60,742 bases of DNA, filler included, from Hausera hauseri (GCA_046269625.1; 12 parts of 12 records of this genome joined end to end with filler, not necessarily neighbours in it), one strand, 5' to 3'; counted from the first letter of the whole stretch, positions 20,239 to 56,072 are shown. Program-made: numbers and translations. The notes: generated by a model not told the origin, from the letters alone.

Positions 20239-20343
20239 TCTGCAGCTTCATCTAGTAATAATAAAATAACCTGTCCTCATATTATTTGTTTATAATCGTG
20301 TTACACGCGTATAAATATCTCTAGTATAAACACTGTTTCCATA

Positions 20344-20859
20344 ATGTTAGCTAATATCAATTATCGCGGACATGTTACCGAGTGTGACATTAACACACTA
20401 CCTTTTATTCAATGGAAGAAGAGGCAGTATGTCCTCAAGTGTCCATCGGATTTTACATGCATCGTATTTCAATCGGGAAAGTGTCGTATTATGAGTCGTT
20501 GCAAACCAATCACAGATGATAAACTACTACCATTCGGGATTATCATTGAAAAAATCCAATCAATAACGGTAACGACTCAGTTAGACTACCACCAAACAAT
20601 CAATTTGTACAAATTATTAATGACCGCTGCTGAATGTACATATGAACCCGAACTGTTTCTTGCACTGAGACTGACATCGTTTTGTCCACTCTGTGTCAGT
20701 GCGTTTACCAGTGGAAAAATTGTTGTTCTCGGTATTCGGACAGTGGACTATAAACCGATTATTAATCAAATTAAAAACCACATAAATGTTTCAGTGAATC
20801 AAAATAATGTACATTGCACAACAACAACAAACTATAAATACAATTCCCATGCCCATTGA
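20344..20859 (+). CDS. TATA-binding-protein (TBP)-like protein
   Basis: Two TBP half-repeats: ANINY..CIVFQSGKCRI and IQSITVT..INLYKL..YEPELFLAL..PLCVSAFTSGKIVVLG. Intact and intronless, with TATAAA motifs just upstream. Confidence 0.88.
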   Translation: MLANINYRGHVTECDINTLPFIQWKKRQYVLKCPSDFTCIVFQSGKCRIMSRCKPITDDKLLPFGIIIEKIQSITVTTQLDYHQTINLYKLLMTAAECTYEPELFLALRLTSFCPLCVSAFTSGKIVVLGIRTVDYKPIINQIKNHINVSVNQNNVHCTTTTNYKYNSHAH

Positions 20860-21459: not shown

Positions 21460-21860
21460 TTAATGACATATCAGCATTTTCTAAAATCAACTTTATTCCA
21501 ATACACATTATATCCTCTTTAAGCACTTTGGAAAATTCGTGCATATAAGTCAAATGTTCCAACGCGGTCTTTCCAGTACTGTCTTTCACATTTACCAACT
21601 TCGGATTTAATCTCAAAAGTTTCTTCATTATAACGGAATTTTTTTGAAAAACAGCCCAATGAAGTGATGTGAAACCGTACTTTCTGTCAATTGCACAGCT
21701 TACGGTCGGATGTTTACTCAAAATGAATTCCGATATTTCCAATTTCTTACAACGAATGGATAACTGCAAGTTTGACTCTCTGTTTTCGGCTTCGAAATAT
21801 TCGGCTTTAAAAGCATTTGAAAGGCTTCTAATTTTCGTTCATTTACGGCAAAATTGAGAG
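21460..21860 (-). CDS. Ankyrin-repeat protein fragment
   Basis: YGFTSLHWAV...KKLL...VNVKDSTGKTALEH. Confidence 0.85.
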
Positions 21861-21959
21861 GATTAAATCCACTGTTATTTTAGATTGATAAATCAACGGG
21901 AAACGTTAATACTTTATTAATGATCGTATGATAATCTTTGTTTTTAAAGGCTAAATGAG

Positions 21960-23856
21960 CGATGGTATCACCGTTGAAATCCAGTAATGGTTTTATTTGT
22001 GTCAATCTCTGTAGCTAAATTCGTGAAGCAGGAAATCTGGCCCGACAAAGGCCCGATGCGGCGGCGACGGACGCCCGGCCGTGTCCAACCAAATGGGCCA
22101 GAGGGCGCCGGCCGCTGTGGGCATCACATCACCCCCTGTGGCAAAGTGAAAACTATAAAGGGTAAAAGAGAAAGAGAGAAAAAACCGCAAAACGAAAAAG
22201 TGTTTGTGTCAGTCGGTCTTAGTGTGGACAAGACGTTGGGTGCTTTCTAATAATTTTTCCCTGCTATGCTTGCTGAATGTGACTCTGCGTGTTTTGTCTT
22301 TATGCTGTATGTTTGTTTGCAGAGGTTGAAATTGGGGAAAAATTGTCAAATTTCGTTGTAAGTGTTGTGTGATGCTAAGACGAGTCAGAAAGAAGAGAAG
22401 AAGAAGATGAAGGAAGAAGAGAGATTGTTGAAGACAAAGGAATGATTAAAGGTGTAGTGGAGGATAAAGGAAGAGAAAGAGAAGTTAGAGTAGAGGTTGG
22501 AATTGAATTGATGAGAAAGTGGAAGTAGAAGATGAAACAGAAGTAGTAGAAAGAGGTAAAGAGAGGAGGAAGTTGTGAAGCGAAAGTGAAAGGAGTAAAA
22601 GATGATGTGTGAGGAGAAAGGGGATAAGAAAGCACCGAAGATAAGGAAGGTGTGGAAAGAGACGGACAGAGCGAAAGAGAAGACGGCGAAGAGGTACAAG
22701 GCGAAAGAGATCGAGAAAATGGAGATGGCAAAGGAAAGTAGTTGGAGGGTGGTGTGGAAGAGGTTGGAATGATGAAAGGTGTAGATGGAGAGATTGATGA
22801 AGTCGAAATGGTGTTTGGTGGAGGAAGTGCTGTAAAAGGAAAAAGCAGGTTGTTGTGAGGGGACGAAAAAGATGGTGGAAGGCTTGAAGGTGCAAAATCG
22901 GATGGGGGAGAAGCAGCTGAATTGTGAGAAGAAAGTGAAGTGGAAGTTTTGGGAGAAAACGTAAGGGAAAGTGGATTAAGACATTGAGCAGAGATGGAAG
23001 GTGAATTGTTAGATTGTTTCGCGTCGTATAAATATGTTTGTGGAGAACTGACTTTGATGGCAGACGTATCGTCAATGGAGAAGGCCGGCTTAGCGCTGTT
23101 GATGTAGACGGTTACTTCTTTGTTGTCTCTGAGAATGATGATGTTGTGGGAGTGTAAGCGAATTACTTTGTAAGGGCCGACATACTGAGGTTGAAAGCAA
23201 CACGGCGTCTGATTCTTTAGCCAAACGAACATGGCAGTATATAAATCGTCGGGTATTTAGGGTTTATTTGCGTGTAATAGTCTGCAAAATGAGTCTTTGC
23301 TGATCTCAACGAAGTGCCTCTGTGCCGCTTGCATAGTTTCGTCTGTAGGAGTATTGTTTAGCTCAGCCAGCTCGAATAATGATCTAACGGAAGTGATAGT
23401 AATGCTTCTGCAGGTGAACAGCCTGTAGAAGTGGATGGTGTGTTCCGCCAGCCAAGCAGAACGTACGGAAAAAGTGTAGTCCAACTGCGATTGGACTCAG
23501 CGAGGATTTTGAGAGACGTTTTCATCGTTTGGTGAAAGCGTTCGAGAAGGCCATTCGATTGAAGATTATATGGTGACGTGTGAATGTGGTTAATTCCCAA
23601 TCGATTGATAAAAGCTTTAAACAGGTTGGATTCAAACTGTGGACCTTGGTCTGAAATGTTGTGGCGAGGTGATCCAAACCTGCTGATACAAACACGGATG
23701 AATACGTCTGCGATGGTTTCTGTGTTGGTGCTCCGAAGCGGGGCAGCCTCTGGCCATCGCGAGGAACAGTCCATCATTGTAAGGGTGAACTGATGGCCGT
23801 TATCTAAGGGTAATGGGCCTACAAGGTCAATATGAAGGGATTCGTAACGGGACGTT
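21960..23856 (-). mobile_element. Gypsy (CsRn1-like) 3' half: integrase, Ser/Pro-rich tail, PPT and 3' LTR
   Basis: HIDLVGP, SRWPEA, SDQGPQFES, NGLLERFH, YVGPY. PPT AGGGGGTGA precedes an LTR start TGTGATG at 22128; the LTR far end is approximate. Confidence 0.9.
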
Positions 23857-24549
23857 GTAGAATGTAGAATTTATATCTATATCGGCCATTGATCTTCTTA
23901 GACAATTTAAAAAAATAAAATATTCAAAAACTTTAACCCGACTTTGTTGGTGCATAAAAACATGAAATTCTGAGTTTCTTTGCACCAAATGGTACTGAGT
24001 TCCTTTGTACCACTTTAAATACTTTGGTAATAATAATGGGTGTTTTTCATTGTTGATTCCCATGAGGTTTTTCAAAACAAAAGTCACTTTAACAAGATAA
24101 ATCTTTATTAACAACGTTCAAAATTTTTATCTACTTTTCATTTCTAGAAATCGTGCATTTCAAACAAAATCTGTTTAACGAAATTACAAAACATGAAATC
24201 AAACTCTCGCCCATTAAACCTCCCGTTGCTGTTAAATGTCACAATTTTTATTTGATTAAATCCAAATTTTATTTGAATAATTAACGTATTACCCTTGATG
24301 TCCAATAAAAGTATCTCAACTTTGTGCAGTGATAAATAGTCTATTGTAGGGTTTTTAATTACTGTAAACGAAAAAAAACAGTTTATGTCCGTCTTATGGT
24401 ATTTGCATGTTTCGACATTCTCGGCTTGAGTGATTGACATTGTAATTGGTTTCACAATAAACGATAATCAACTGCTGATATCATTTAGTTCGACAATGTG
24501 ATGATAAATATTTCGTCAGTAAAACCAAAATAACAGTGGTAACACTACA

Positions 24550-25957
24550 GTACCCCGGTGGCAAGGTGTAACTGTAAAGATAAAGGAAATAGTAAACGAA
24601 CGTAGAACGATACAGTGTGGGCTAACTATGTGGTCTTCGTATGTACAAGTCGTTGTATTCCATCAGTATTTAGCACTCTACTATAGGTACTGAAGGTGAC
24701 AGATTTGTATTTTTTTAGTATCGTTAAATCTGTTTGATAAGTTCATGGAGATAAAACTATGTCGGACGTCGTCGTTGAGGGTGGTATATCGTTCAGTAAT
24801 GAGAAACTGGCTGGAGGGGAAAAGGTAGGAGAAACTGGAAGAAAAGTGGCGAGATTAGTGTAAGGAGTTTGAGGAGCAGGTTCTAGTAGCGGGGTAGTTG
24901 TAAAGTTTGCAGAAATAAAAATTGGAAAAGGCGGTGGCGTAAGAGAAAATGTAGAAGGTTCAGTCTGAGATGCATCATCAACGAAAAAAGCGGGATTTAC
25001 GTTGTTCATGTGCACCGCTTGTTCTTTGTCGTCTTTAAAAATAATGGCATTATGGGAATGCAATTGAACTAGTTTGTAAGGTCCCAAATACCATGGTTGG
25101 AAACCGCGCGGTGTCTGGTTTCTCAACCAAACGAATTTTGCCGAGTATAGATCCTACAGTACGTATGATTTATTGTTGTTCAAGATCCTACAGAAGGAAT
25201 CTTTGCTGACGAATACAAAATGGTTTTGTGCTGACCGAATAGCTTCGTCTGTCGGTGTATTTTCCAAGGCCGTTAACTCAAACAATAAACGTACAGGTTT
25301 TCCGAAAAGGGCTTCTGTAGGTTAACAACTTTTAGAAGTAGAATGTGTATTACGCCAACCCAGAAGAACAAGCGGGAGGACAGTAGTTCAACTGCTATTG
25401 GATTCTGCGAGGATTCTCAATGACGTTTTTAGTGTTCTGTGGAATCTTTCAAGATGACCATTCGATTGAGGGTGGTACGGTGATGTGTGGATATGTCTAA
25501 TTTCTAATCGGTTAACGAAAGATCTAAACAAATTGGACTCAAATTGAATACCTTAGTCTGTAATAATGAATCTAGAGGATCCAAATCTACTTATCCACGT
25601 GCGTATGAAAACGCTGGCGATCGTGTCCGTATTGGTGCTCCGTAGTGGAACGGCTTCTGGCCAACGTGATGAACGATCCATCATGGTTAGAATAAACTGA
25701 ATACCATTGTCGGGAGGAAAAGGGTCAACGAGATCGACATGAACAGACTCGAAACGTGATGTGTAAGGGAAATGGTATGAGGGTGGCTTTAAATGTTTGG
25801 TGATTTTAAATTTCTGGCGAGCTACGCACTCCTTAACCCACGCTTGCACATCAGAACGCATAGTTGGCCATATTACTTGTCGATGGAGCACCTTAGCACC
25901 AGGATGGTGCAGTGAATGTACACTGTTAAACGCTTGCCTTTGTAAAGGTGGTGAGTG
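24550..25957 (-). mobile_element. Second Gypsy (same family) integrase to PPT/LTR start
   Basis: HSLHHPG, WPTMRSDVQAWVKEC, HVDL, SRWPEA, YLGPY. The 3' end TTGCCACCGGGGTAC-TGTAGT parallels the previous copy. Confidence 0.88.
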
Positions 25958-26299
25958 CTGCTGGAGAGTTGTATTCGCGGTGGATTATGTGAGGTTGTGC
26001 ATAGATATGCGGAGGCTAATAATAAGCATATGGTGGACAGGTACGACGAAAGTAAAGAGTCCATGTACATTACATATCTGGATACAAATAACCTATATGG
26101 ATGGGCAATGTCACATTGCCTACCATATGGGGACTTTCAATAGATCACATAGAACGGTAAAATGAATAGTGATATTCTAAGTATAAGTCCCACAGCATTC
26201 ACAGGGTACATATTCGAAATAGCTGTTGATTACCCTGAGACTCTACATGCTGTGCATGATCAGCTACCATTTCTACCGGAAACGATTGAACCACCAAAT
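25958..26299 (+). pseudogene. Polinton pPolB fragment
   Basis: IRGG...RYAEANN...YLDTNNLYGWAMSHCLPYGDF...GYIFE..DYPETLH..HDQLPFLPE. Confidence 0.93.
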
Positions 26300-28903: not shown

Positions 28904-29026
28904 GGAATCTCCGACCGCGGACTCGCCTACACAACGTAATAAACTAGTCAAGTATTAAAGGTTCCGTGCGTTCGTGTTTTTTTTTTGTAACGACACGTGT
29001 GTGTTTTTCGTCGGCTTTCGGCGAAA

Positions 29027-29746
29027 ATGCTCTTGGTCGCAGCCTCAGTCGAATTTGCGGTCGTTTGTTGCGTGGCTCTACCAACGCCGGCTCCCGTGGT
29101 TCCGCAAACCACCGCCGCAACAATCTTCGCGACTCGAGAGTATGACGAGGCAGACAACAAACAGCTGACATCTACACCGGATCATACGATTGGCGATTTG
29201 TTAGATCGGTTAAATGTAACAACCGATCCGTTTACGCAAAGTTCGACTAACAAGCTCTACGATGACCAGATATCGTCAGATTCGGGTGGTCTCGCGGAAC
29301 CCGTAACAAAATTGACGATTAGGTGTCCGGATGAAAAAAAAGCAAGATTTGATGGTTTCACGTGGCTCTCACGCGACGAACCGAGTTACCGTTTGTATTA
29401 TATCAACCGACGGGGTACAGTGGTCCGCTACAGGAGCAGCGCCTCGCATCACGACAAGCTGAAAAACACATACGGTCTCACGCTCGCCGTAGACAACGCG
29501 TCGGCTCTTAATATAATAGGGAATAACTGTAATTACACGGGTTCATACGCGTGTCTAATGTACAACCCCACTAGACGCGAAACGTACACTTTTTATGTTA
29601 CAAACTGTACGGTCAAACCGACAACGACGCACGACGACGGTTTTACACACAATCGTATCGACACTTACGACGTGTTCTTGATTCTCTTTGTCTCGCTTTT
29701 AAGCGTGATCATCTGCTTTACTGCGTATCGCGTGTGTCGCATGTAA
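29027..29746 (+). CDS. Type I membrane glycoprotein with one Ig-like domain
   Basis: Signal peptide, Thr-rich stalk, LTIRC...FTW...ALNI..N.NYTGSYAC, N-glycosylation sequons, TM VFLILFVSLLSVIICFTAY and a very short tail. Confidence 0.8.
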   Translation: MLLVAASVEFAVVCCVALPTPAPVVPQTTAATIFATREYDEADNKQLTSTPDHTIGDLLDRLNVTTDPFTQSSTNKLYDDQISSDSGGLAEPVTKLTIRCPDEKKARFDGFTWLSRDEPSYRLYYINRRGTVVRYRSSASHHDKLKNTYGLTLAVDNASALNIIGNNCNYTGSYACLMYNPTRRETYTFYVTNCTVKPTTTHDDGFTHNRIDTYDVFLILFVSLLSVIICFTAYRVCRM

Positions 29747-30467: not shown

Positions 30468-31114
30468 TTAACAAACAAACACGACCATTAGGGTTAACGC
30501 CGTTACGACAACGGCAGAGTAAACCTCGGTGTTCCCGTTAGANNNNNNNNNNCGCGGAACTCATGTTCTTCGTTCCGCTGGCCCACGACGGCAGACCTGT
30601 AACACGCGTAGTATCCGTCGTGGTTACAGTTTCTGACGCGAATAACGAGAGACTTGTTTCTCGAGACGCTGTATCCTACGTTGTTTTTACTCTGCATTAT
30701 ATGTGCGTCCTGGTACACAGACACGACTCCGTTCGCGTCGACTCGGTACAACCCGGATTGCGTTTTCTGCAATACGCAGCACGACCCGGAGTGCGGTCTC
30801 CAGGGTGTACCCACATACCACGTGGTGGCACTGAAACGCTCGGGGTTGTGGTCGGGACAGTCTAATACCAGCGAGCCGACGTCCGGATCTGGACGGTTGG
30901 TTGTCCGACCCGTCGATACGTCCAACGTCGGCGACACCTTCGCGGGGACCCGCCGATCGGTGTAGATACCAGGTTGTCCGTATCCGTCCGCTAGTGAGAT
31001 GCTCGAATCGCGTTCGGGGTGCGGGGTCGTTGGCAGCACGAGTCCGCAATGAAGCGATGATAATGTCCAACATCCCAGCAGTAACCAACACAGCGTTGTC
31101 TCACGCGAGACCAT
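30468..31114 (-). CDS. Paralogous Ig-like glycoprotein with a hydrophobic C-terminus (contains a 10-N gap)
   Basis: Signal peptide and LVLDCPD...TTW...LYRV...SLVIRVRNCNHDGYYAC. After the gap another frame reads SNGNTEVYSAVVVTALTLMVVFVC*. Confidence 0.75.
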
Positions 31115-31627
31115 GTTGTCGCGTTCACCGAGATGTGTCTCGTTTACGGTTAAAAATGGGCTATATATATATATATATCGCAGCACATCTGACTGACGTT
31201 AAGCGCACCGACCGATCACGCACTTTTTATATCGCCCGACCGTGCAGCTTTTACCGGTTCCGACTAGGGGCCGAATGTATGAATTCAATAAAATACATCG
31301 ATCCAATCGTTTCTTTTTCTGTTTATTTATTTGTGTTTAAATGTATAACAGATCCCTCAAAGGGGACGCGTAGATGATGAGTTGTTATTGTGATAAACGT
31401 CGTGTACAGCCGCCTCGAGGAAATAAAAAAAAACCACGTTCGTCATGTCCAGTAACTTACCATTTGGGAGGACAGGGGTTGTTATTACCAATTGCGTTTT
31501 GCACAAATGACTCAAAAATAAACCCGTTCGTTGAAAAGTTAATGTGACTCTCACCGGATGCAGCACGCGACATTTGTGTACGAACACAGGCCTTAATAAA
31601 TGAAAAAAAAAGCACTAGATTCTTCGT

Positions 31628-31890: not shown

Positions 31891-32150
31891 TCGGCGCACC
31901 GGCGTACGTTCGGTTTTACATTTTTTTTTTGTTCCGACAGCGTGGACAGATTTTTTTTTTTTTTTTTCCCTCGACGANNNNNNNNNNNNNNNNNNNNNNN
32001 NNNNNNNNNNNNNNNNNNNNNTTAATTAATTAANNNNNNNNNNNNNNNNNNNNNNNNNNNNNNNNNNNNNNNNNNNNTCCTAAAACAAAGTATTGTTTGA
32101 AACTTGAACCAATTCTCTGTTTGCTGGTGGAATAACCCGATCTGTAGTTA

Positions 32151-33563
32151 TCAGGTTATTCCATCATTGATTCCATCTTGTGGTATCATCACCCTTAGTT
32201 CCCTCTCGGTGATTTTATGACGCTTAATACAACAGTTTTTGGCAATCAATCGACAAAACGCAATTAAGATTATGAGAGCAAATACTGACGTTCCAATAAT
32301 CGATGTTTATGACAACACTGTCCATTTAGTTAAATCTTCCATTTTGGCGGTAGTCGTAGTCTCATCTTCTGTTTTATCGGCGGTCAGTGGTTTTGTTACG
32401 ACAATCTCGTTCTAGGTTCGTATTGTGAACACTCTACCTTGTTTGTTCTCTGCACCCAATTCTATTATATAATCTGTTCTGGGTTTCAATCCGATACATT
32501 TGATTCCGTAACTGCCTTTTGGCAGTGTTACCTTCTGATTATCGTGTTATGTTCGGCAGCTTATTTCTACGTCGTATTTGAGTGTTTCCTCCACAATGAA
32601 CGTTATTTCGCATTCTTGTACCTGATATTTACAAGGATTATTTCTGGATCTTTGTGAGATAATTTGTTCGTTGTAGTGGTTTTGATGATTGCAGGAGTAG
32701 TAGACTTTGTTTTCGTATTTGTTGTCGTATCAAATGAATTCGACTTGATTGGATTTCTGAGTCGGTAGCTTCCTAAATAAATACTCGACTGGTTTGATCT
32801 GACTTCATATAAGTCTAACTGAATTCTATATTTATATTTCTGGGGTAACTTGCAACATTTCTTCGGTTGCTCCCCATTGATTTGGCAGTACTGTTGGCTG
32901 TAAGCTTGTATGTTTTCTTTCAGGAACCGGACTGAGATTACTCGACCGTTAATTCATTGTCCTTTTGTGTTTATTTGAACACAATTGTCCTTTGGATTTT
33001 CTATTATACTGGCTATATTTTTTAGCATCCGCTTTAGTGGGTCGATGGACTGGAGCATTTTGTTGGGTTTTATCCCATGGTGCTTGTTCCAAGCAGGGAT
33101 AACTAATTGAAATTGTGGTTTTATTTCGTAGATTTTAGAGTTTCGGTGAATGCAGTCGATAGGTAAGGTTATAGGTATGTCTGAAATCCATATTGCAACA
33201 TTGCGTTTGCTCTCCCGGCTCGAAATCACAATTTCTTGTTTCTTTTGTCATTATATGATCTAGGACAATTTGAAATATTCCAAAATTGTGGTGCGGTTTC
33301 TGTATTGTAAATCCAACGCATGTGGAGTTCGGCGAGTAATAATAAATTGTAACTGATTGTAACGACGTAATATTTTCTAGTCTTTTGATTTGTTCTATTG
33401 TCGCTATCTTTTCCATTTTATTAACCTCTGGTTTTGGTTCAATTTTCCATGCTCCGTATCCGTCGTGCCACTCTCTAGTTTTTGCTGTCGGCATGCAAGA
33501 AGCAATTAGCGATAAGGCTAAAACTATCAGCGCGTATAATATTGGCCTGGAGACAATTGACAA
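32151..33563 (-). pseudogene. Env-position FN3-like type I membrane protein, copy A
   Basis: Signal-like ILYALIVLALSLIASC, Cys-paired beta domains, GLKPRTDYIIELGAENKQG (FN3 signature), Thr-rich stalk, TM SIIGTSVFALIILIAFC and a KNCC tail. Confidence 0.85.
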
Positions 33564-36482
33564 ATCTTGTTTTCTCGTGATCTTAGATGGTAATGTTTAG
33601 CTGGTCTTATATCCGTTTTGACTACTCTTTGGACTGATACGACTTCCTCTTTTCCGTTTTTATTGACATAAACCGTAGTTGGTTTTGTACGAATGATTTC
33701 ATATGGTCCTCTTCCGGTACGTGTTAATCTTAAGGATGTACCTTTCTTCGCAACTGGGTAATGTATATAAACCCAATTTCCTTTTTTCAGATCATGAGGC
33801 TTAGTCTTTTTATCATATTGTTTTTCAAATTGTTCCCGGTGTTCGAGTGATAAGATTTTCGCAACTTCCCAACACTTTTGTAATCTTGTCTGTAAAACTT
33901 TCGCAAAGTTTTGCTCTAAATCTTCGAGATTCTTTTCGTACGGTGTCATATCTAGATTTGTCGGTAAGATTGCCTATCCTCCATACATCATAAAGAACGG
34001 TATAAATCCCGTTGCTGGATGTGGAGTAGTACTAATTGCGAACTGTGTTCCTTCTAGGAATTCGTCCCAATCTTTTTGGTCTTTTGCCACTACTGTTCAT
34101 AGTATGCGAATGACTGTTGCGTTCATCCGTTCAACCATTCCATTACATTGGGGATGATACGAGATTGTAGTTAAACGTTTGATTTCGAATATTTTTGTAA
34201 TTTTTTCAAATAATTCGCTTGTAAAGTTCCTTCCTCTGTCTGTTAGGACCTGTTCCGGTGGTCCGTATCTACAGATAATTTTTCTTACTACTGCATCGGC
34301 TAGTGTTTCCGCTTTTTGATCCAATAATGCTACCAGTTCGACAAAATGTGTCAATGGATCCGCGCATGTTATAATATATCTGTTGTTTTTGTGAGGTTTA
34401 GGTAAAGGTCCTACTATATCCATAGACATGGCCTGCATAAGTATATCTGGTACGTTTATTGGTTTTAGTTCTGCTACGTAGCCTTTCGTCTTCTTTTGTT
34501 TCGTTGCCCAAACTTCGCACGCTCCTACCCAATTCTTTACGTCAATATAGATACTTGGTCAGTAGTATTTATTCAATATTCTTTGCAATGTCTTCTTCCA
34601 AGACATATGTCCGGTTAAATACGAATCATGTTCGGCCATGAGTACCTCGGTGCGCAATTCTTTCGGAATAACTATTAATCTTCGTCCCTTTCGTTCATAA
34701 TACAGGATATTATCCTGGTTTGACGCGTGATATTTATGTCCGTTTTTCTGCAGGTGCCTTTTCAGTTGTCATCCTTTGGTCATTTCGCCGTTTTGTGCGA
34801 AATTAACAATTTGCTAAATAACTTTATCTTTGGCTTGCTGGGCTGTAATTTTAATTGTCTTATCCATTATTAGAGTTCGTTGTCGTTCGATCAGTTGTTC
34901 AAGTTGTGGCAATTTTGCTATAGTAATTGCGCTCGTTTTTGTCTTAAGCCTTTATAATGCGTCTTCGCCGACATGTTTATTTCCAGGTTTGTATTGGAAT
35001 TCAATGTTATATCGTGAGATTTCCTCAATCCAACGGTTTAATCTACATGTTGGATTATTAGCTCGTCCCTTCAATGTCGTGACTGCTTTGTGGTCGGTCA
35101 CTATTATAATCCTTTGCCCGCAGACATAGACATTAAAGTGTCGTAGTGCTTCCTTTACGGCTAACGTTTCTAATTCTGTAACAGAATAGTTTCCTCGGCC
35201 TTTTTAAGGAACGTCCACCATAAGCAATCGTGTGCTCTAATTCTTCATCTTCTCTTTTCTGCGCTAATTCGTATCCAATGCCTTCTTTGCTGGCATCTGT
35301 CTTGATTATGAAGGGTAAGTTAAAACCTGGATATCGTAAAACGGGTTCACTTGTTAATATCTTCTTCATCTCATCAAAAGCTTTATGTTCAACATCCGTT
35401 CATTTCCATTTAATTCCTTTATTAGGTAAGCGATATAAGGATGATTAATTTTTAAATTATTTGGTACGTAAGTTGCGTAATATCCGAATAATCCTAGCCA
35501 GTGTCTTAACTCTTTTTTATTCTGTGGTTCCATGCAATCTGATATTTTATTCAATAACATTTTATCTGCTTTCGATCCTCCTTCTCCAACTATATGGCCA
35601 AGTTAGGATACTGCATTCTGAGCCCATCTGCATTTCTTCGGATTCAACTTCAATCCGGCTTGTTCCAGTCTCATTAATGTGTGTTTGATATCCTTTAAGT
35701 GTTCCTTTTTGGTCCTTGACGCTATCGTTACGTCGTCTAAGTACGCAAAAGCATGATCCAGACCAATTAGCATTTTATTCATCATTCTCCTAAATGTGGC
35801 TGGTCCAGTAGTAATACCGAACCCCATGACATTAAATTCATAAACATCATCGTGTGTTTTAAATGCCCTCTTATATCGGTCTTCGTCCTCTATTTCCACT
35901 TGCCAATATCCGTATCTTAAGTCCAGAGTGGTAAACCATTTCGCCCTGAGAGTCGGCCTGAAGCCTCTTTGACCGACGGTAGTGGGAAGGAATCCTTCAT
36001 CATAAGACTATTCAAGGCTGCGTAATCAATACAAAATCGATGTTTCGTGGTACCTTTCTTCTTAACCATGAGGATTGGTGAATATCAAGATCTATAGCTG
36101 GGCCTAATTATATCTGCCTTAAGCATTTGTTCGACTTCTTTTGTTATTTCGGGCCTTAATGAATGAGACGGAGGGTACCATTTTGGCATCTTCTAGTCTT
36201 CTAAATCTATTTCCTCGTTTGACCCTGGCTTTTTCTTGAGTGGAATAGTTAGTTTTAATGCTTTCGCTCTACGGATATCTTCTTCGCCCTTAGCGATAAT
36301 CGATTTATATCGGCATAACAATTCGTATAATCGACAATAAGACTGAGGTGAAAACTTAGTTTCGACATGGGGCGAAAATTCGGCATACTTATAAGGCCTT
36401 TCTTCAATCGTTATTGACGATACTCTATACGTGTATCCTAAAGTAGTATAAGCATGGAGCCTGACAGGAGTTTGCGCGTTAT
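33527..36482 (-). mobile_element. Ty3/Gypsy pol (RT-RNase H-integrase), decayed, copy A
   Basis: FCIDY, GYWQV, YLDD, KTDASKEGIG, TDH, SMDIVGP, TDRGRNF, NGMVER and GPY in Gypsy order. Confidence 0.97.
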
Positions 36483-37133
36483 NNNNNNNNNNNNNNNNNN
36501 NNNNNNNNNNNNNNNNNNNNNNNNNNTTAATTAATTAANNNNNNNNNNNNNNNNNNNNNNNNNNNNNNNNNNNNNNNNNNNNTCATAAACGTTTGTAATT
36601 TTTCCACTATATTGGATGATAAAAACATCTACTGATAAAGTAACAAACTTATTCATATTATCTTTCAAATGAAAATATAATATCCTTGCCCAAATAATTC
36701 TTACAGTAAAATACGACACTTCATGATTTAATAGAGGATCTTCTTGATTTATCATCCTTTTATTTTCAGATCTTTTATTTATTTGAAGTTTATTTTACGG
36801 ATAACCCCGTCCATCTGACAGTTGGTTACTTTTTGTAATTTTAATCTCTTCAACTATCTGTTGTAATATTATTATTGGTCTGGCGCGATATAAATATGAT
36901 AAGGCATTCGAAAAGATATTAAATCTAATACTTTGTGCAATTAATTTTGTGGACGAGCTTTTGAAGGAGGATAAGTTTAATTTTACGTTTTTTTTAATAT
37001 GGTTTAAAACATTAATATAAACTTTACCTAATTTGCCCCAATAAGTTTTAACGCCGTAATTGTCAAGGAAAAACCCAAGACGGGAAGCGGAGACGGTTAA
37101 CAGCGGCATATATGGCAATACAGAATGACTGAC

Positions 37134-40100
37134 CTAATTTTTGTTTGTTTGTCTGTCCGTCTTTCTGACCTGACGTTCTGCGGTTCCAGTCGTAAATTTG
37201 TCATCCTCGATACGATCGTCAATTTCTTTCTGGTATAGGATTTCCATACGATTAATGAGGTAGACTTTAATTTCGTTTTTATATTCTCCATTTGTCTCTG
37301 CTAAAATAGAAATCGTGGCGAATTTTTTAAGGGGATTTGGAACCCCGTTGTAATCAAAAAATGTTGTTCTAAAGAGAACCGTTAACATTCCCAATTTGAT
37401 CAGCTGCTTTAGATCTGTCAACTCTTCTTTCTTTAGTAACTCAGCCTCTTCTTCAGCTTTTCGACGTTGCAATTTTACTTCTGTCTGAATTTTACGAAAC
37501 CTTTCTGCCACTTCTTTAGCTTTTCGACGGTTGTTGGAATTGGACCTTGAACCATAGTATTGATTTGACGACGTTATTTGTTTCTGATAACTTTTCAAAC
37601 TAGAACTTCTGGTTATACTCTCTTTTTGGGGACTCGACGATTTTTGTTGCCAGAGTAAATTGGTCATTTTATTCATCAACATGATCGTATCGACCCTACT
37701 CGACTGTGACACATTATTAACATCGGTAATTGTTTCGTCAGTTGCTGCCTTTCGGGACATTCTGTTAAGCATTTGTGAAAATTTCGAATGTAAATTTTCC
37801 TTATCCGCATGACCATAATTATCGTCATGTACTAATTCAGATGCTAATTCATGTACTAAGTCTCCGTCCAACTAACCAATTCCAAATTTCTTTTTCAATT
37901 TGGCTAATGTTGCTGCATGTAGTTTCTTTCGTTTTTCAATATAGCTTTTATCGTCGTTATCATCATCATCGTCTGGTACGTCACTGTTCGCTAGTCGTTT
38001 GTCTGATCCAGTTCGATACAAGTAACAAGTAATGTTCTTCGGTGAACTCTGTGAATTTCGATTTTTATCTGTCTTTGATATTCTTCTGGTTCGATGATTT
38101 GTCTTTTTGTTGTTTGTCTGTGAACTCAGAAGTAGCATGATTAATGTTTTTGATCGGTTCAACATTTCGATGAGATAAATACCAAATGCTTATACTGATT
38201 GAGTCGCATTTTGGGGTAACATTGGTCAATGAGGTAAATGTTGGAGTTGATGACTGTTGACGATGAGTATCCCTTTCGTCATATGATCGGGAACTTAATG
38301 TGTGATGCTGTGTCATTAATTTGTTAGGACAAATACGGTCGTCTTTTAATACCTTTAGTTGGACCATCATCTGATTTCAATACAGTTAAATTGCTCCCAT
38401 TTTGGTTGCAGAATTGGTTCTTGTTGTTGATCGTTCATAAATAATTTGTCTTCCAACTTCTCTTTTGCTTGATCATATAATCTGAGAATATCTCTCACTG
38501 TTGCATTACTACCTAATACTTGTACAACTGTCATTTCAAGCTGAAGTAGCTTTTCTTGTTCGTCGCTGAGTTCAATTTTCTCCTTTGTTTTGAGCATTTG
38601 AAAATGAATCAATAATGTAGTTATTTCTTCTTTCTTTTCATTCATCAAATTTAATTTGTCTGTCATCATTTCATTTTTGATTCAATCCATTTCACTACTG
38701 ATGTCCTCGACCCACTTGTTCTTTTAATACATTTTCAATTACATCTCTTTTACTCTCCAAACGAATTTCTACTTCAGTTTTCTTATTTCCTTTCCTCAAT
38801 CTCTGTTTATACATTTTCTCCACTTCTTCATTGAAATAATTTTCAATACTGTTATTTATTTCATTCTTTTTTGAAGCTAAAATTTCTTCTAATTTTCGTC
38901 CGTTTCAATCGCTCAACAGCCAAACTGTTTCCAACGGAAATACGATTTTTACTAAATTGTCTCAAGATTTCACTTCGATTATCAACGGGTAAAGTTTTTT
39001 GCATGTTTATTACATTATCAAGAACATCGCTTTGTGCATCTAAAAGATAATTTTCTTCTCTCTGCTGATCATCAATATCTGATTTGATTTCCTGTTTAGT
39101 TTTCATCAACCTTTGCTGCAATTCATATTCCTGGGACTTTTCATCTTGCAAAAGGTTCATATAAACATGAATGGATTGGCAAGGGGATTTCCCAATTTCT
39201 TTAGGGTCATACATAGAAAAATGTCGTTTATCAAAATCAGATCCGCTAAACGCTGTTTCCAATGTGTAACTATTGTTAATTTTAAATTGACTCCACATTA
39301 TTACACGGCCTGTCGACAATTCACTCTTCTGAACTTGAAATTGACGTCCAGTAAAAGAAAATGCCAATGGATTCTGCTTCTGCATTATCCGAGAAAACAG
39401 TTGATCTTTTATAAAGGAAGAAATCGTTTCCAAATTAATGACCGGATTCAGTTCCGTAACGTCCTCGGCATTCTGATATTGTGAGTAATTTCCGACAATT
39501 ACTCTATCTGGATTTAGCATTGACACGATTTTGAAAATAATCCTTTTGCGTAATCCCTTCGCAAAGGCACAATCATTGATTAAATACTGAATAAGACCCT
39601 TCATCATCCAACTGGAATTTGTTTCTGGATACTCTTGCGGTAATTACTGCTCCAAATTTTTTGTAATTCGGAACATCTTCACCGGTTACTGTAAGAACGA
39701 AACAGCCGTTGCAGATATTTGTTTCACAAAGAACATCTTGATTCATGATTGAGGAGTTGTTACTGGAAAGGAAAAAATTGAGATCATTCTTAAGGTCTGT
39801 AAAATTATATGGGTAACAATTTGCCAGATAACATATATCATAAGGAGAGGGAAACTCTATTTGAAACTCCGGTTGATAGTATGACGTTTTTCTGTTCAAT
39901 AAGGAACACTGTAACTTTGTCACATTATAAAAGTACCTTATATGATGTCCAATTCGAAACCAACCTTTGTTTTCTTTGTTGGCACAATGTTCGGAATACA
40001 AAAGCATTCTCATTCCTTCCATATACAGACTATTTGGCTTTAACAAGTTGATAATGATCAATTTGTACATTACATTCTTCAGCATATTTTGAATCCGAAA

Positions 40101-41028
40101 ATAAAAACATTGAGTATGTCTGTTCGTGTACATATTCCGTAATACTAACTCATATTTGATCTGTCTTATACGTCTCGCTTGACGCAAGTTACTGGATTCA
40201 AATCGTGACTCAAACACCAGACTAGGACAATCATTTTCTGGTTGACTAAACAATGCTGTTGTACGTGGGTTTGTTTTTGAGTCATAAACAATTTGCATGT
40301 TTCCATATCGCTGTGAATGAATGATTGTTGATGGGTGCTTAATTTCTTTCTCTGTCCATCGACGGATGTATAATGGGCTCCTCCTGATTACTAAAGAATC
40401 TTTTATGAGTTGGAGATGGATGTAGCGGGCTACTATTTTTAGGCCAAAATAAATCATGTTTATCTCGTACTATGCCATATTTATCTTTATACTGTCCATT
40501 TGGCAGAACTTCAAATTTGCTACCGTCAGCTAGTTTTCCATTTTTCAGTGCCTCATTGAAGCCATTCTTCGTAAATGAGTTGAACAGCAACTATTTTTCT
40601 TTCTGACTTAATGAACCGAAATTCTGCATGACATCGCAACCTGTTTTTGAAAAACTTAATTCTCAAAGTGGTTGCTCTTCATCATATTTGTAGCGTTTGA
40701 ATATAATTCCCGCACTGGCTGGCGATTTCGGTTCATAATGATTTCTTGACCAGCATTCAAACCCGTTCGTTCCAAGTTCCGAATATCGATCGCCGTCCAT
40801 CTGTATGAAGGGGATTTCTCTTCAAATTTATCATCGTTGTTGTTAAGTTGGTAGCCGATAACTTAATTCGGTCCCGTTCATTGAAATCAACACGGGCATT
40901 TAAATCCGTGTGTTTCATGCTCTGTTTTTCCCTTGCAATGCTTCTTCTTCTTGTCGTATTCTATCGCCTAGAGGTATATTCAAAACTTCTCGAACTCGAT
41001 GAGTAATTTCATTTTCAAGTTGCATTTT
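37134..41028 (-). pseudogene. Intronless cytosolic carboxypeptidase (CCP2/3, AGBL2/3, Nna1-like) pseudogene
   Basis: FESRFESSNL, YELVL, HTQCFYF, CYLANCYPY, ITARV, ETNSSWMMKG, MLNPD.VIVGNY, TGRV, NSYTLE. Many frameshifts; assignment of the coiled-coil tail below 38860 is less certain. Confidence 0.88.
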
Positions 41029-41173
41029 NNNNNNNNNNNNNNNNNNNNNNNNNNNNNNNNNNNNNNNNNNNNTTAATTAATTAANNNNNNNNNNNNNNNN
41101 NNNNNNNNNNNNNNNNNNNNNNNNNNNNAAACCAATTCTTTGTTTGATGACAGAATAACCTGATCTGTAATTG

Positions 41174-42579
41174 TCAGGTTATTTTATCATATGGGTCTAC
41201 AGGGTACTCTAATTCCCTTAGTTCCCATTCTAAGTTTTTATGACACTTAGAACAAGAGTTTTTGGTGACTAGCCGAAAAATCGCAATTAATATAATGAGA
41301 ACAAATTCTGACAATACCGTGATAGATACGATTGGTAGTGTAGTTAGTCCCATCGTTGCTTGTGTGGTGACTGGGGTTGTGATCTGTTCATCTATATCCT
41401 CATATATATGCGATTCTGCACGAATCTCATCTAAAGTATGCAGTGTAGCGGACTGATTTTGCTTATTCTCTGCATACACTTGTACTATATATTCGGTTTG
41501 TGCTTTTAATAAATTGCACTCTGTTTCAAAAGTATTTTTAAATAGCGTCACAACTTGATTATTATACGTTGTCCGTCAACTTATGTATATGTTGTAATTT
41601 TGTTTCTATTCCACGAAGAACACAATCTTATACCGATATGCCGAATATTTATTATGGATACTACCTAATTCTCTTTTAGGCACAGTGACCGACGTAACGG
41701 TTGACGTAATGATACTAATTTGAGTAGCTGGTCTTCTAGTGGTTGCCTCTACTGTAATTTTCCTAATTCTATTTCCTGGATAGTAAGTTCTAAATGGTAT
41801 ACTTGATTTATTCGGCCTTACTTCATATAGATCGAATCTTATGTTTAATTCTTGGTTTACGGGTATTTTACAGCATGGGTTTTGCACGCCTTCTTGAATA
41901 GAAAAATATTTTATTTTCGGAGTCGGTCCAACTGTTGCTTCAAACGTGATACTAATTTCCTGACTAAAACTTACTCTTGTTCTAGCGTGTACTTGAATGC
42001 ATTGTTTATCCTTATTCATAGAGATTCTCTGGATATTTTCGTCTAATATTCTTATATCCCGGTCAGTAGATCGTAGTATTTCATTCAGTTTTACTCCATG
42101 ATGTCTGCTCCATGCAGGAATAACTAATTGAGAACGTGGCTTTGTTTCAATATAAACTTCGGATGAATCTGGTAAGTATAAACGATAGGTGAGGTTATAC
42201 GTTTGTCCAAAATCTATGTCGCAGCACTGCATATTTTCTTCAAGCTCAAAATCACAATTTTTCGTAGCTTTTGTGTTTAAGTCAAATAAGACAATTTGAA
42301 ACCTTCCAAAATCGTGATGCCGTTTCCAAGTCTTAAATCCAACGCATACGGAGTTTGGCGAATAATAATGGATTGTCATTGATTGTAATAATTTGGTGTC
42401 TTCTTGTTTTTCAACTTCTTCGGCTGTTGGCTTCTTTTCCGTTTTTCATCCACTCTTCCGAATTCCGTATACATCTCCCAACGTAGATTCATCGTGCCAC
42501 CATTGCGCTTGTATTCGTGGGATGTAGGAGGCAATTAACGATAATAATAAGACTATCTGAACATACGATATTGGTCTGG
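41174..42579 (-). pseudogene. Env-position FN3-like type I membrane protein, copy B, in frame with integrase
   Basis: IVLLLSLIAS signal-like helix, YYSPNSVCVGF...CC...TYNLTYRL, LKAQTEYIVQVYAENK and TM LPIVSITVLSEFVLIILIAIF. Confidence 0.88.
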
Positions 42580-45522
42580 CAATTATTGAGGAAGTCTTTA
42601 TTTCTCGTGAGCGTAATTTGTTACGTTTATTGGGCCGTATCTCTGTCTTAACAACTCTTTGTACTGATATGACTTCTTCCTTTCAATTTTTGTTAATATA
42701 TACTGTAGTTGGCGTAACCTTCGTAACTTTGTGCGGTCCTCTGCCTGTACGAGTAAATTTTAGTGAATTACCCTCTTTAGCGACTGGGTAATGCACATAA
42801 ACCCAATTTCCTTGCTCTATATCATGCAGTTTCGCTTTCTTATCATATTGCTTCTTAAATTGCTCTTGATATTTTTGAGGTAGTTCTTTACAGATTTCTC
42901 AACACTTCTGCAACCGCGTTTGTAACACTTCTGCAAAATTATGTTATAAATCTTCACTATTAACTGTGTATGGCGTCAATCCTAAGTCCGTGGGCAACAC
43001 GGCTTCACGTCCATACATCATAAAAAATGGCATAAATCACATTGCTGGATGTGGCGTGGTTTTAATTGCAAATTGAGTTCCTTCTAAAAATTCGTCCCAA
43101 TCTTTTTGATCTTTCGCTACTACTGTTGATAATATACGTATGACGGCATCATTCATCAGTTCGACCATTCCTTTACACACAGGATGATATGCAATGGTCG
43201 TTAATCGTTCGATTTCAAATATTTTGGAAATCTTCTTAAAAAGTTCCCTTGTAAAATTTCTTCCTCGATCTGTGAGTATCTGGTCTGGAGGTCCGTATCG
43301 ACAAATAATTCTTCTTACAACTGCTTTCGCAAAGGTTTCGGCTTTCTGATCTACCAATGGTATCAATTCGACAAAATGAGTTAGGCGGTCGATGCATGTT
43401 AAGATATACTTACTGTTCTTATGAGTCATAGGAAGAGGTCCTACGATATCCATCGACATGGCCTGCATGGGTCCATCGGGTACGTCGATTGGTTTTAACT
43501 CGACCATGTAGTTTTTTGTCTTTTTCTGTTTAGTTGCGCACACTTTACAGGCATTTATCCAATTTTTCACATCAATATAAATACTGGGCCAAAAGTATTT
43601 ATTCATTATTCTTTCTAATGTCTTCTTCCAGGACATATGTCCGGCTAAATACGAATCATGTTCTGACATCAATACTTCGGTTCATAAACCCTTTGGGATA
43701 ACTATCAGCTTCTTTCCTTTTCGTTCGTAATGTAAAATGTCTCCTTTATTTCCGTCGTTTAAGACGCAGTATTTGTGTCCGTGTCTGTGTAAATGTTTCT
43801 TTAACTGTCGCCCTCTTGGTATGACATCCTTTTTAGCAAATTCTATATTCTGCTGGATAATCTTATCCTTTCTTTGTTCTGTTGAAATTTTAATGGCCTT
43901 ATCTATCGTTAACGCGCGTTGACGGTCTACTATTTCCTCAAGTTTACTTTTCTTCATTACTGTGATTGCGTTTGTTTTAGTCTTTAATCTCGATAGTGCA
44001 TCGACGTCTACATGTTTGTCCCCTGGCTTATACTGAAACTCAATTTTATATCTGGAGATTTCTTCTATCCATCTGTTTAATTGACACGTCGGGTTATTTG
44101 TTCGATCCTTTAAAGTTGTAACGGCCTTGTAGTCAGTGAAAATTATAATTTTCTGACCGTAAACATAAACGTTGAAATGACACAGTGATTCTTTTTGCAG
44201 CTAGAGTTTCCAGTTCGGTAACAAAATAGTTTTTCTTGGCTTTCTTCAAGGAACGTCCTCCATAAGCAATTGAGTGTTCTAATTCTTCGTTTTCTCTTTT
44301 TTGCGCTAGTTCATAACCGATGCCTTCCTTACTGGCGTCTGTCTTGATTATAAACGGTAAGCTAAAATCTGGATATCGCAAAACGGGTTCGCTTGTTAAT
44401 ATCTTCTTCAGCTCATCAAAATCTTTCTGCTCCACGTCTGTCCATTTCCATTTAATCCCTTTTTAAGCACAAAATATTGAGATGCATTAATTTTTGAATT
44501 ATCTAGTACGTAGGTTGCGTAATATCCGCATAATTCTAGCCAGTGTCTTAACTCTTTCTGATTTTGTGGCTCCATGCAATCCGATATTTTGTTCAATAAC
44601 GACTTATCTGGTTTCGATCCTCATTCTTCAACTATATGACCTAGGTAGGACATGCAATTTTGAGCCTCTTTGCATTTCTTCGGATTTAACTTCAATACGG
44701 CTTGTTTCAATCTCATCAGCGTGTGTTCAATATCCTTTAAGTGTTCTTCTTTTGTTCTCGATGCTATCATCACGTCATCTAATTACGCAAAGGCATGATC
44801 CAATCCCATTAACATTTTATTCATCATTCTGGTAAATATGGCTTGTCCGGTAGTAATACCGAACGGCATGACGTTGAATTCATTAACACAGTCGTGTGTC
44901 TTGAATGCCGTTTTATAGCGGTCCTCGTCCTCAGTCTCCACTTGCCAATATCCGGATTGTAAGTCCAGAGTAGTAAACCATTTTGCTCCTGAGAGTCTAT
45001 CCAGGGCCTTTTTTACTGATGGTAATGGAAAAAAATTCTTCATCATAAGATTATTTAGAGCTCTGTAATCAATACAAAATCGGTGCTTCGTAGTGCGTTT
45101 TTTTTAACCATAAGGATAGGCGAGTACTAGGATTTGTAACCGGGCCTAATTATATCGGCCTTAAGCATTCGTTTGACTTCCTTTGTTATCTCGGGTCTTA
45201 GCGAATGTGGTGGAGGATAACATTTCGGCATCTTCTGATCCTCTAGATCTATTTCTTCATTTGAATCAGGTTTTTTCTTAAGTGGAATAGTCAGTTTTAA
45301 CGCTTCCGCCCTACCAATGTCTTCTTCATCCTTAGCAATAATCGATTTATAGCGGCATAATAATTCATAAAATCGACACTAAGATACTAGGGAGAATTTA
45401 ATTTCAACATGAGGCGGAAATTCGGCATACTTATAAGGCTTTTCTTCAAAAGTTATTGAGGATACTCTATACGTATCTCCTAGAGTAGTGTAAGCATGAA
45501 GTTTTATAGGACTTGGTGCATT
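42580..45522 (-). mobile_element. Ty3/Gypsy pol, decayed, copy B (same family as copy A)
   Basis: TLDLQSGYWQV, MPFG, KTDASKEGIG, H..AGH..C..C zinc finger, SMDIVGP and TDRGRNF, collinear with copy A. Confidence 0.97.
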
Positions 45523-45622: not shown

Positions 45623-48600
45623 CTTTATGACAAAACTAAATGTAGATAGGTATGATATCTGTCGTTCCTGCCTCGGTGATGGCTGTTTTAGTGACATGAT
45701 GTGCCGCAGAGGTTTGTGGTCCGTTTGGATAATAAATGGACGAGAGAGGAGGAAATGCTTGAAATTTTTTACTGCCAGAATTATGGCTATTAGCTCACGA
45801 TCAAATGTTGAATATCGGTTTTCTGGTTTTGTGAGTTTTCGAGAGTAAAATTCCAAAGGTTCATCGACGTCGTTGGAAATCTGGTGCAGTATTGCACCAG
45901 TAGATGTGGTACAGGCATCGGTGGTAAGTATCAGCTCCGCGTCGGGTTTTGGATATGCCAGTATTTCTACTGTTCTTAGGCCTTCACGTAAGTGATCAAA
46001 TTTGGTAACTAAATCGGAAGTCCACTGGATTAACTGTTTTTTCCTTCCAGATGAGAGGTGTGCGAAAGGTGCTGTAAGCTCCGATCAATGCGGTACGTAT
46101 TTATGGACGAAATGTAGTGTGCCAAGAAAACTCTTCATATCTGTAGTGGTCGTTGGTAGTATTACATTTTTCAATTGCTGTAGTCTATCAGGTTGCGAAG
46201 AGTGGCCGTGAGGAATGATTATGTGGCCTAAGAAATTGACACGTTTCTGAAAGAAGTTGCACTTGGAGAAGTTAACTTGTAAGTTGCTATGATGTAATCT
46301 GTGAAAAATGATTCGGAGATGTTCGTGGTGTTTTTTGACGGAGTTGGAGGCAACTAATATGTCATCGATTTACGGATGAGCAAAATCAAGGCCTGAGAGA
46401 ACGGTGTCACTGTGGCGTTAAAAGTTTTGGGCTGCGTTACGTAAACCGAGTGGCATAAAGATGTTTTCGTAAAGGCCAAATGGAGTGTTGACAGCAGTTT
46501 TTGAATGTCATTGGGTGCAACGGGAATTTGATGGTAGGATTTGTGCACATCTATTGTGGAATAGATATTGGTGTTGTTAAGACTGTGCAGGATATCCGTT
46601 ATGAGCGGTAATGGGTAAGAATCCATGATGTTAGATTGTTTATTTGACGGTAGTCGCCACATGTTCGAAAAGTACCGTCTTTCTGATACTACTTGTAATG
46701 ATGAAGCCCATGGTGATTTTGACCTCCGAATGATACCAGATTTTTCGAGTTCGATAAACTCAAATTCCACGGCTTTTCGTCTACGAGGAGATAATGGTCT
46801 CACCTTTTGCCTGATAGGTCTTTGGTGTTGGGCGACAATGTGGTAATAAGTTGTTGATGGGGGCTTAAAACTAGAGTCATTTTTGAGTATACGAGAACAA
46901 GAAGAAATGATTTAGGATTTGAGATTGAAATCTAGTGATAAAAGTGATTGAGGCATAATATCAGAGGAGGCGGTGACTGTAATTGGCGAAGAACGAACGA
47001 CTTCGCCGCCATCAACGTTCGGTTTAATCGGTTGTTTTAAAATCGACTTTGATATTTGAAACGTAATTGAGAAAATAGATAAACTACTAGATTTATCGTT
47101 ATCAACCGAAGAGAAATTTGCCAAATTCACATGTGAGTTCGCAGACAAAGTGCCTGTTGAGCTTTAGGATAGACAATTGTTAACGTTCACGACGGAGTCT
47201 CTACATAGCAAACAGCCATACTTGCAGGCAACTAGCAGGTCGTGTGCGGCCAAAAAATCTGAGCCGATTATTGGCGATTTAATATTGGCCACGTGGAATT
47301 TCCAGACAAACTTGCCTGCTAAGTTTGAAAATGTAAAAAAAGTTCTGTGGTACCTGCGATTCGCAAAAGTTGACAGCTGGCAGTGAAAAGCGGAGGAGAA
47401 GAAATTGCATTGGGTGTAGGGACAACGGACAAAGGTAGAAGTGAAAAGACAGCTCCTGAATCAATAAGAAAATCGATATTTGGAGCATTTATAGTGAATA
47501 GTGTAGCTTTTAACAGAATAACTGTGGAGGCGGTGTTAAGACGGCCAGAAGACTGAGCGGTATTGCCTATGCCAGAATGTGCCATGACATCTGGCAGCGT
47601 TTTTAGTTTTTTGAAGATTGTGAAGGAAAAGAAAATGAATGATAAGAAGAAGAAGGAGAAGAAGAAGATGAAGAAAAACTGAAGTTAGTTTTGTAATGTT
47701 TACATCCCGTAACACACGATCTGACTAAAGATTCAAATTTTGTATGATAAATGCAAATATGGCTGTCCACCGCAAAACACTCGTCATAAAATTTACAGCC
47801 TAAGAGATATTTCTCTGCATTTCTGCGAAATTTATTGTGATAAAAATAAATCATTTGTCCACCCAGGGATTTAGAACGAAATAAGTTCCTCTAGTAGCTA
47901 CGCTCACGCGATGCACGGGTCTCAACTCACCGAGACATAGATTGATTACTTAGCTGGGCAGTGATTGCTGAAACTGAGAGTTGTAGAGTATCGTATTGTT
48001 TCTGCATTAATTGTAGTTGCTGTGCGAAAACAGTCGTGTCTATGTGCGATGGGGTGTGCGTGGTTGCTGCTGCTACGGGTTGTGAGTTGTTAGTTTGTAA
48101 AATTTCGAAACTTTTATCAGCCAATAGGGCACGTTTTTCAATCGCTGTCGAGTCATCAACGACAATAAGGAGAGCTCTGATTGAAGTGGGCAAGGAGGAA
48201 AGGAAATAACGGCAAAGCAAGTCTGCATTGTTGGTGGGGGTAATGCCAAGAGCATTTAGGTGTAAAATAGAGGTCTGCAGAAAGTCAGAAGACTTTTGAC
48301 TGCCTATAACATGTTCGTTAAAGTATTTATGTATTATATTATCAATCGATGGATCGGTAATATGAAGAACAGACTCATAAAGCATGTCACATGGTGTTGA
48401 AGAAGTAAGGATATCAGCAAGTTTATTAATTTGGTGCTTGATATTTGCTTGGAAAAAGTAACAAGCTGTTGGCGTGCAAGAAAGAATCGGTAATATGATT
48501 GGCTTTAAGCCATTGTGCGGCTTAAATTAGTTTTATCGAGGAAAAACTCTGTGCAAGGAAAGTTAGGAAAGCAGATTGTGTAGAGTCAGCAGGACGACGA

Positions 48601-56040: not shown

Positions 56041-56041
56041 A

Positions 56042-56072
56042 TGGTATCAGAAGTGGGATTTTAACCCACGCC
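56042..56072 (+). promoter_or_regulatory. Primer-binding site complementary to the tRNA-Leu(CAA) 3' end
   Basis: TGGTATCAGAAGTGGGATTTTAACCCACGCC versus the expected complement TGGTGTCAGAAGTGGGATTCGAACCCACGC. Confidence 0.8.

Follow-up and report, generated by a model that had tools for sequence, protein, structure and literature searches.

We analyzed a 60,742-nucleotide stretch of DNA from Hausera hauseri (GCA_046269625.1), hereafter the window, which consists of twelve small contigs separated by blocks of N or linker sequence and whose gene content is that of an animal. Two of these contigs carry copies of one Ty3/gypsy retrotransposon family on the (-) strand, copy A at 41129-45522 and copy B at 32078-36482, and in each of them reverse transcriptase (RT), RNase H, and integrase are followed by a membrane-protein cassette. 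On balance, we favor the view that the pol frame of this family runs into a type I membrane protein with three predicted fibronectin type III (FN3) domains, which probably served as the cell-attachment protein of the element. The three domains are under purifying selection as part of the element, and both copies in the window are dead. An earlier note on this DNA, made from the sequence alone, had regarded the cassette as an old, selected part of the element and not as flanking host DNA. This is supported by the ratio of nonsynonymous to synonymous substitution rates (dN/dS), by a junction shared between the two copies, and by a fusion in a related protein, P0002.

The cassette consists, in order, of a hydrophobic segment, a charged helical spacer, domain 1 (D1), a helix, domain 2 (D2), a Thr-rich linker, domain 3 (D3), a Thr-rich stalk, a transmembrane (TM) helix, and a Cys/basic tail. 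It is ~480 residues long with an ectodomain of 330 residues, and it contains three or more N-glycosylation sequons and exactly two hydrophobic regions, the signal and the TM helix, with none between them. In copy A, a single frame (44200-41177) makes the integrase (42611-43681; Pfam Integrase_H2C2, E 2.8e-16, and rve, E 7.6e-14) continuous with the cassette (41174-42610), whose tail ends in YDKIT. The copy A cassette has three in-frame stops (42448, 41608, and 41578) and no frameshift, and its parts are the signal (~42586-42506), D1 (42381-42110), D2 (42064-41785), D3 (41671-41438), the stalk, the TM helix (~41332-41261), and the tail. In copy B, RT was recognized in the largest open piece of the decayed pol (35603-36007; Pfam RVT_1, E 6.9e-26), upstream of an integrase with a zinc finger, core, and C-terminal domain (33566-34654; Pfam rve, E 1.6e-11; three in-frame stops; 76% identity to copy A), in agreement with the Metaviridae pol order of RT, RNase H, and integrase. 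The cassette starts at the same codon position behind the integrase in both copies, and it is in frame in copy A.

The cassette of copy B had been placed at 32151-33949; the part at 33566-33949 turned out to be the integrase C-terminus, and the remainder is indeed cassette. It begins with an internal signal-peptide-like segment (33477-33565; hydropathy 2.6 over 15 residues) with a putative cleavage site and a 1-nt loss at its 5' edge. D1 (33089-33365) has four Cys residues, is 67% identical to its copy A counterpart, and contains a 2-nt loss. D2 (32765-33046), an apparent internal paralog of D1 preceded by a helix, contains a stop at 32956. The Thr-rich linker (32665-32764), which has a frameshift near its end, is followed by D3 (32415-32651), the most canonical FN3 domain of the three by prediction, with two Cys residues 20 residues apart and a stop at 32549. 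The Thr-rich stalk (32310-32414), delimited by the frameshift-aware alignment and the codon model, has a stop at each end. The last part (32151-32309) comprises the TM helix (~32306-32241; hydropathy 2.8), the Cys/basic tail, and the terminal stop (32153-32151), an end point common to copy A and to a homologous protein, P0032.

The two copies were 0.717 identical in DNA over 4,344 aligned bases, and their cassette proteins were 45% identical over 439 codons. The A/B domain pairs scored z 49 (D1), 16 (D2), and 25 (D3) against 2,000 shuffles. All eight protein motifs quoted earlier were present in both copies, and the quoted third-domain sequence, GLKPRTDYIIELGAENKQG, was located in copy B at ~32495-32440. 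The possibility that A and B are alleles or a segmental duplicate was rejected on the basis of 72% identity and strong codon structure. D1 and D2 are also similar to one another (four pairs, z 3.8-6.6), which suggests an internal duplication. Sequence coverage in both contigs extends from just upstream of RT to 45-73 bases past the cassette stop, and no polypurine tract was seen in the last 470 bases except one 9-mer within the coding part of copy B. The contig starts (36482 and 45522) lie within 2 bases of each other in element positions, and the ends (32078 and 41129) within 28 bases; these matching ends are probably assembly breaks at conserved high-copy sequence.

Selection was estimated with a codon model (kappa fixed at 3), from which stop codons and codons within 9 bases of frameshifts were dropped, leaving 956 codon pairs. 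The cassette showed a dN/dS of 0.33 (95% range 0.25-0.40; 439 codons; likelihood-ratio test against 1, p 1e-13), with values of 0.22 for D1, 0.17 for D2, and 0.23 for D3, and a joint value of 0.23 (0.16-0.32) for the three domains. The signal plus spacer gave 0.34, whereas the linker (0.76), the stalk (0.33, range to 1.0), and the TM-tail part (0.73) were not different from 1. The integrase gave 0.05 (352 codons) with a dS of ~2.9 between A and B, so that constraint on the cassette is about six times weaker than on the integrase. When the DNA-only alignment was used, the cassette dN/dS was 0.43 in frame, whereas four shifted frames gave 1.16-1.42; the antisense frame that shares the wobble position gave 0.44, low as expected. 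Post-insertion decay could only push these values up. A dN/dS near 1 in the cassette had been named as one result that would overturn its status as a selected part of the element; the values for the cassette and for each domain are well below 1, and this status therefore stands for the domains.

The family was also examined in contigs of two sequencing runs, X1, which may be the window's own source, and X2, which is coded as another organism; run depth was not taken as copy number. There were 15,201 contigs of X1 and 1,162 of X2 lying on the copy A contig, and 12,270 of the 15,201 X1 contigs were less than 95% alike to it, with all 30 bins covered. The integrase-cassette junction was bridged by two pieces among those listed, one per run. 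No RNA run was listed among those containing the family. These contigs also bear on the decay of copy B. Its frame breaks had been attributed to a 1-nt loss and a 2-nt loss, and a frameshift-aware alignment placed both, at ~33562 and ~33143. The fit breaks exactly at 33565 in 14 contigs of X1 and 3 of X2, and 6 contigs of X1 have two more bases at 33140. The two losses do not explain all of the breaks: a third loss of 1 nt lies at ~32665 (within 32635-32690), and the cassette has four in-frame stops (32956, 32549, 32414, and 32309), all of which had been missed. The stops at 32956, 32414, and 32309 represent private decay of copy B, since all aligned X1 depth reads otherwise there.

P0032 was the sole match to the cassette among 1.84 billion representative proteins (E 7.8e-35). 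It is an open protein of 479 residues, the single member of its group, encoded on a contig of 4,939 bases and known here as a protein alone. It matches the cassette in its signal, domains, Cys pattern, and end point, with 35% identity over 483 columns of the alignment with copy A. When the integrase was used as the query, 30 long proteins were found. The best match, P0002, is intact and 37% identical, and is collinear with both copies across RT, RNase H, and integrase in a tblastn comparison. The Pol of P0002 runs in frame for 450 residues past the integrase, through a signal, two FN3-like beta domains, a stalk, a TM helix, and a tail. In a tree of 32 integrases, copies A and B and P0002 fell on one side of a branch with a Shimodaira-Hasegawa-like approximate likelihood-ratio (SH-aLRT) value of 96. 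The P0002 domains resembled D3 weakly (best z 4.5, p 0.003 as the best of 28 pairs; profile E 0.027) with the same Cys spacing, which suggests that they share an origin with the cassette domains. A BLAST comparison of P0032 with P0002 was not significant. Word-indexed protein searches with the cassette returned none of 640 and none of 5,564 candidates, locus scans of metagenome contigs and viral contigs gave no relative, and no PHROGs family matched the cassette. In a PDB sequence search, flavivirus NS3 rows (E 0.07-0.4) were rejected as chance, and one monobody (E 1.1) was not significant.

The fold was predicted for the P0032 ectodomain with both copies as alignment rows. The model showed three seven-stranded domains and a disordered linker (pLDDT < 50), with a mean pLDDT of 62.9, mostly 60-83 in the domains. 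In a Foldseek search with this model, fragments of three FN3 domains ranked first (E 6.5e-10), 291 of at least 500 matches were at E <= 0.001, and the top rows were tandem FN3 domains of fibronectin, contactin, Tie2, and gp130. VIA-align gave a Z of up to 9.3 for D3 (rmsd 2.3-2.6 over 74-75 residues) and 7.8 for D1 (rmsd 3.1, 87 aligned); D2 matched FN3 only within multi-domain rows. Receptors and adhesion proteins were tied in the VIA-align and fold lists. A search of BFVD returned FN3-rich phage and giant-virus proteins (E 3e-6 and weaker) and no closer relative. No fusogen appeared in any fold list, an absence that is not in itself an exclusion. These results give good support to the prediction that the cassette domains have an FN3 fold; disulfides are predicted in each domain.

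From this architecture we infer cleavage, sorting, binding, and transfer steps as follows. The segment after the integrase would act as an internal signal peptide, sending the cassette into the endoplasmic reticulum (ER) during Pol translation. The signal peptidase of the host would cleave behind a small-x-Ala motif (IQA in copy A and P0002, TQA in P0032). This would free a glycosylated type I surface protein and leave Pol tethered to the membrane, except where it is trimmed by the protease of the element. Sorting of the surface protein to places where particles bud or cells touch may depend on the Cys/basic tail and on the terminal YxxI, a motif present in copy A and P0032 and missing from copy B and P0002. 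The FN3 array would then bind a partner on the target cell or the matrix, and entry would take place through host uptake or with the help of another protein as the fusogen, perhaps an env encoded between gag and pol beyond these contigs. More tentatively, an old invertebrate Ty3/gypsy lineage might use two proteins for entry, by analogy with herpesviruses and paramyxoviruses: a host-derived FN3 adhesion protein from the Pol end, cut by signal peptidase, would decide which cells, such as stem or germ cells, are targeted, and a separate upstream fusogen would fuse. It is conceivable, and held with similar reserve, that the FN3 array in such a pair is the determinant of tropism, having grown by internal duplication and diverging fast between subfamilies.

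Several observations weigh against an attachment protein encoded at the Pol end. With regard to the fold, the FN3 identity proposed in the earlier note was borne out by structure prediction and not by Pfam: PF00041 scored 11.6-13.4 bits for copy A (E 0.09-0.35) versus a gathering score of 25, and no Pfam fn3 match was obtained for the copy B pieces, P0032, or P0002. The better model is that of P0032 and not of a window copy; the single-sequence model of copy A had a mean pLDDT of 34.6 and no match at E <= 0.001, and its listed matches, at E 1.7e-3 (domain 1) and weaker, were FN3-containing entries throughout. Atlas FN3 clusters at 0.87 (copy A) and 0.88-0.90 (P0002) are leads only. With regard to the fusion, 29 of the 30 integrase matches have no such tail (no TM helix in their tails), and the integrase tree is a quick tree. 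Since P0032 starts at its own Met, a separate open reading frame (ORF) or a spliced mRNA may serve some lineages, and since the domain match of P0002 is weak, its tail may have been captured independently. In the codon model, dS is near saturation in the integrase and D2. With regard to function, a common fold by itself shows none. RGD and WSXWS, the marks of integrin ligands and of class I cytokine receptors, respectively, are both missing from all six sequences scanned.

We compared the cassette with known systems as described in the available text of the cited papers. Like errantiviruses, the present family combines a Ty3/gypsy pol with a signal-ectodomain-TM glycoprotein and is multicopy in an invertebrate genome. 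Errantivirus env proteins are F or gB fusogens, and gB-type elements of the GAG-ENV-POL order occur in Platyhelminthes (Chary and Hayashi, PMC13524379), whereas the cassette is predicted to be FN3, lacks both a furin site and a fusion peptide, and follows the integrase as a fusion. The term 'FN3' does not occur in the main text of that paper, nor 'FN3' or 'fibronectin' in its seven readable supplements. The giant gypsy elements Burro/GYPSM1 of planarians likewise have extra domains, including env, in frame within the polyprotein, but the extra domains listed are regulators that act inside the cell (BIR, BCL2, MATH, ankyrin), together with an env placed between gag and pol (PMC6431247); the available text of the Burro paper does not contain 'fibronectin'. 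The bdelloid Vesta and TelKA elements resemble the present family in having varied captured ORFs at the env position, some of them small TM proteins with Cys, but theirs are separate ORF3s (F glycoprotein, GDSL esterase, DEDDy exonuclease, and TM proteins of 210-230 residues) with no FN3 in the text available (PMC5408684). Another similar case is sORF2 of Drosophila MDG1-group elements, a membrane protein that acts independently of Env and has been proposed to carry capsids from cell to cell, although it is short and fusogen-like, in contrast to the ~480-residue cassette with its three-domain ectodomain (PMC11952523). The predicted domain fold and the ectodomain-stalk-TM layout are shared with animal FN3 surface proteins (fibronectin 10-12, contactin FN1-3, Tie2, gp130 D4-6, and IFNAR2), but the cassette lacks RGD and WSXWS motifs and its identity to these proteins is only 8-20%, and the donor gene is not nameable. 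As far as their available text goes, Troyka (PMC12440569) and PMC6338049 were considered and set aside, as were PMC6211748, which concerns FN2 and not FN3, and Cer1 CERV (PMC10309623), a nuclear export protein. No report joining FN3 to a retrotransposon was found in the searchable literature, outside of which Repbase, subscription papers, figures, and bioRxiv supplements could hold one.

The ectodomains of cytokine and growth-factor receptors are likewise built from tandem FN3 domains with disulfides. The cassette could be a captured, receptor-like decoy: displayed by the cell that expresses it, it would bind a cytokine, growth factor, or immune ligand of the host and so favor the survival or proliferation of carrier cells. 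We regard this as unlikely. IFNAR2 D2, IL-22R1, gp130, and ROS1 are among the tied top rows of the fold comparisons, but adhesion proteins tie with these receptors and the WSXWS motif is lacking. The cassette dN/dS, six times that of the integrase, would fit an interface under host pressure, and many host-regulatory domains are found in the Burro elements of planarians (PMC6431247, available text); on the other hand, the fusion to Pol would link the amount and timing of the protein to particle assembly.

The in-frame position behind the integrase, the Cys/basic tail, and the terminal YxxI conserved in copy A and P0032 would also be consistent with a membrane anchor or sorting device that tethers Pol and capsids to the ER, endosomes, or extracellular vesicles in the same cell, with the FN3 domains as a lumenal spacer. 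This appears less likely still: the strongest protein constraint falls on the ectodomains and not on the TM-tail part, copy B and P0002 are without the terminal YxxI, and three disulfide-bonded domains would be superfluous for anchoring. A new entry or cell-cell fusion protein that fills the env role alone is quite improbable. The cassette has the env position with a signal, ectodomain, TM helix, and tail, and Drosophila elements can spread via the non-Env membrane protein sORF2 (PMC11952523, available text). However, neither a furin-type RX[KR]R site nor an internal segment of hydrophobic or fusion-peptide-like character was found in copy A, the three copy B pieces, P0032, or the P0002 tail, and the model contains no long heptad region. 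FN3 arrays are not known to act as fusogens. Finally, the cassette as a passive rider, either a piece of host mRNA captured recently or a flanking host gene, is the least credible explanation, since, even if the purifying selection partly predates capture and P0032 is known as a protein alone, the same junction and end occur in two copies separated by the integrase dS given above, thousands of diverged contigs cover the cassette, the search by sequence among the 1.84 billion representatives gave P0032 alone and no host FN3 protein, and P0002 contains an intact fusion.

The surface proteins known from invertebrate retrotransposons are either fusogens of viral origin or tiny peptides that resemble fusogens. 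An adhesion module of host type, under selection and joined to Pol, as favored here, would be a concrete candidate for the means by which these elements choose a target cell, and P0032 offers an intact natural version for binding and structural work. Surveys restricted to F and gB overlook a class of element-encoded glycoproteins.

A potential RNA hairpin lies over the terminal stop codon of the cassette in both copies. In copy B (32128-32163, (-)), it has a 14-bp stem with z -4.8, and 0 of 200 shuffles were as stable; in copy A (41147-41190, (-)), z was -3.5 and 1 of 200 shuffles was as stable. One A-U/G-C swap is visible in the pairwise alignment of A and B, identity over the last 62 aligned bases is 82%, and the dS of the hairpin region is 0.66 versus 1.1-4.4 in the domains. 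Rfam gave no match within 32078-45522. The hairpin is likely to be a cis-acting RNA element. At 41168-41176 (-), the terminal TGA of copy A is followed by CAA TTA, which fits the read-through hexamer CARYYA. In copy B, this position holds a second stop, and at 32150 nearly all aligned contigs differ from copy B. Read-through past the copy A stop would be a possibility; the downstream substitutions look non-coding.

Other parts of the window contain features of different kinds. Decayed gypsy elements of a different lineage, whose integrases have Ser/Pro-rich tails, occupy 21460-26299, 45623-50192, and 54411-60742, and tblastn detected no cassette in them. The contig at 26400-31977, with a GC content of 48%, is unlike the rest and carries compact intronless ORFs, possibly of a large DNA virus; these ORFs had no significant match in Pfam, PHROGs, or PDB, and those at 28991-29746 (+) and 30503-31198 (-) look like proteins with a signal peptide, an ectodomain, and possibly a TM helix. 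Broken intronless frames resembling a cytosolic carboxypeptidase (38861-40469, (-); Pfam Pepdidase_M14_N, E 1.5e-4) may be a retrocopy. Further intronless frames are DCP1-like (464-1126, (-)), TRAF/MATH (13982-14407, (-)), and TBP-like (20296-20859, (+)); MATH domains also occur in planarian Burro elements (PMC6431247, available text). A decayed protein-primed DNA polymerase B of the Polinton-like type lies at 3286-4881 (+), an integrase at 18576-18902 (-), and a mariner-type transposase at 50738-51358 (-).

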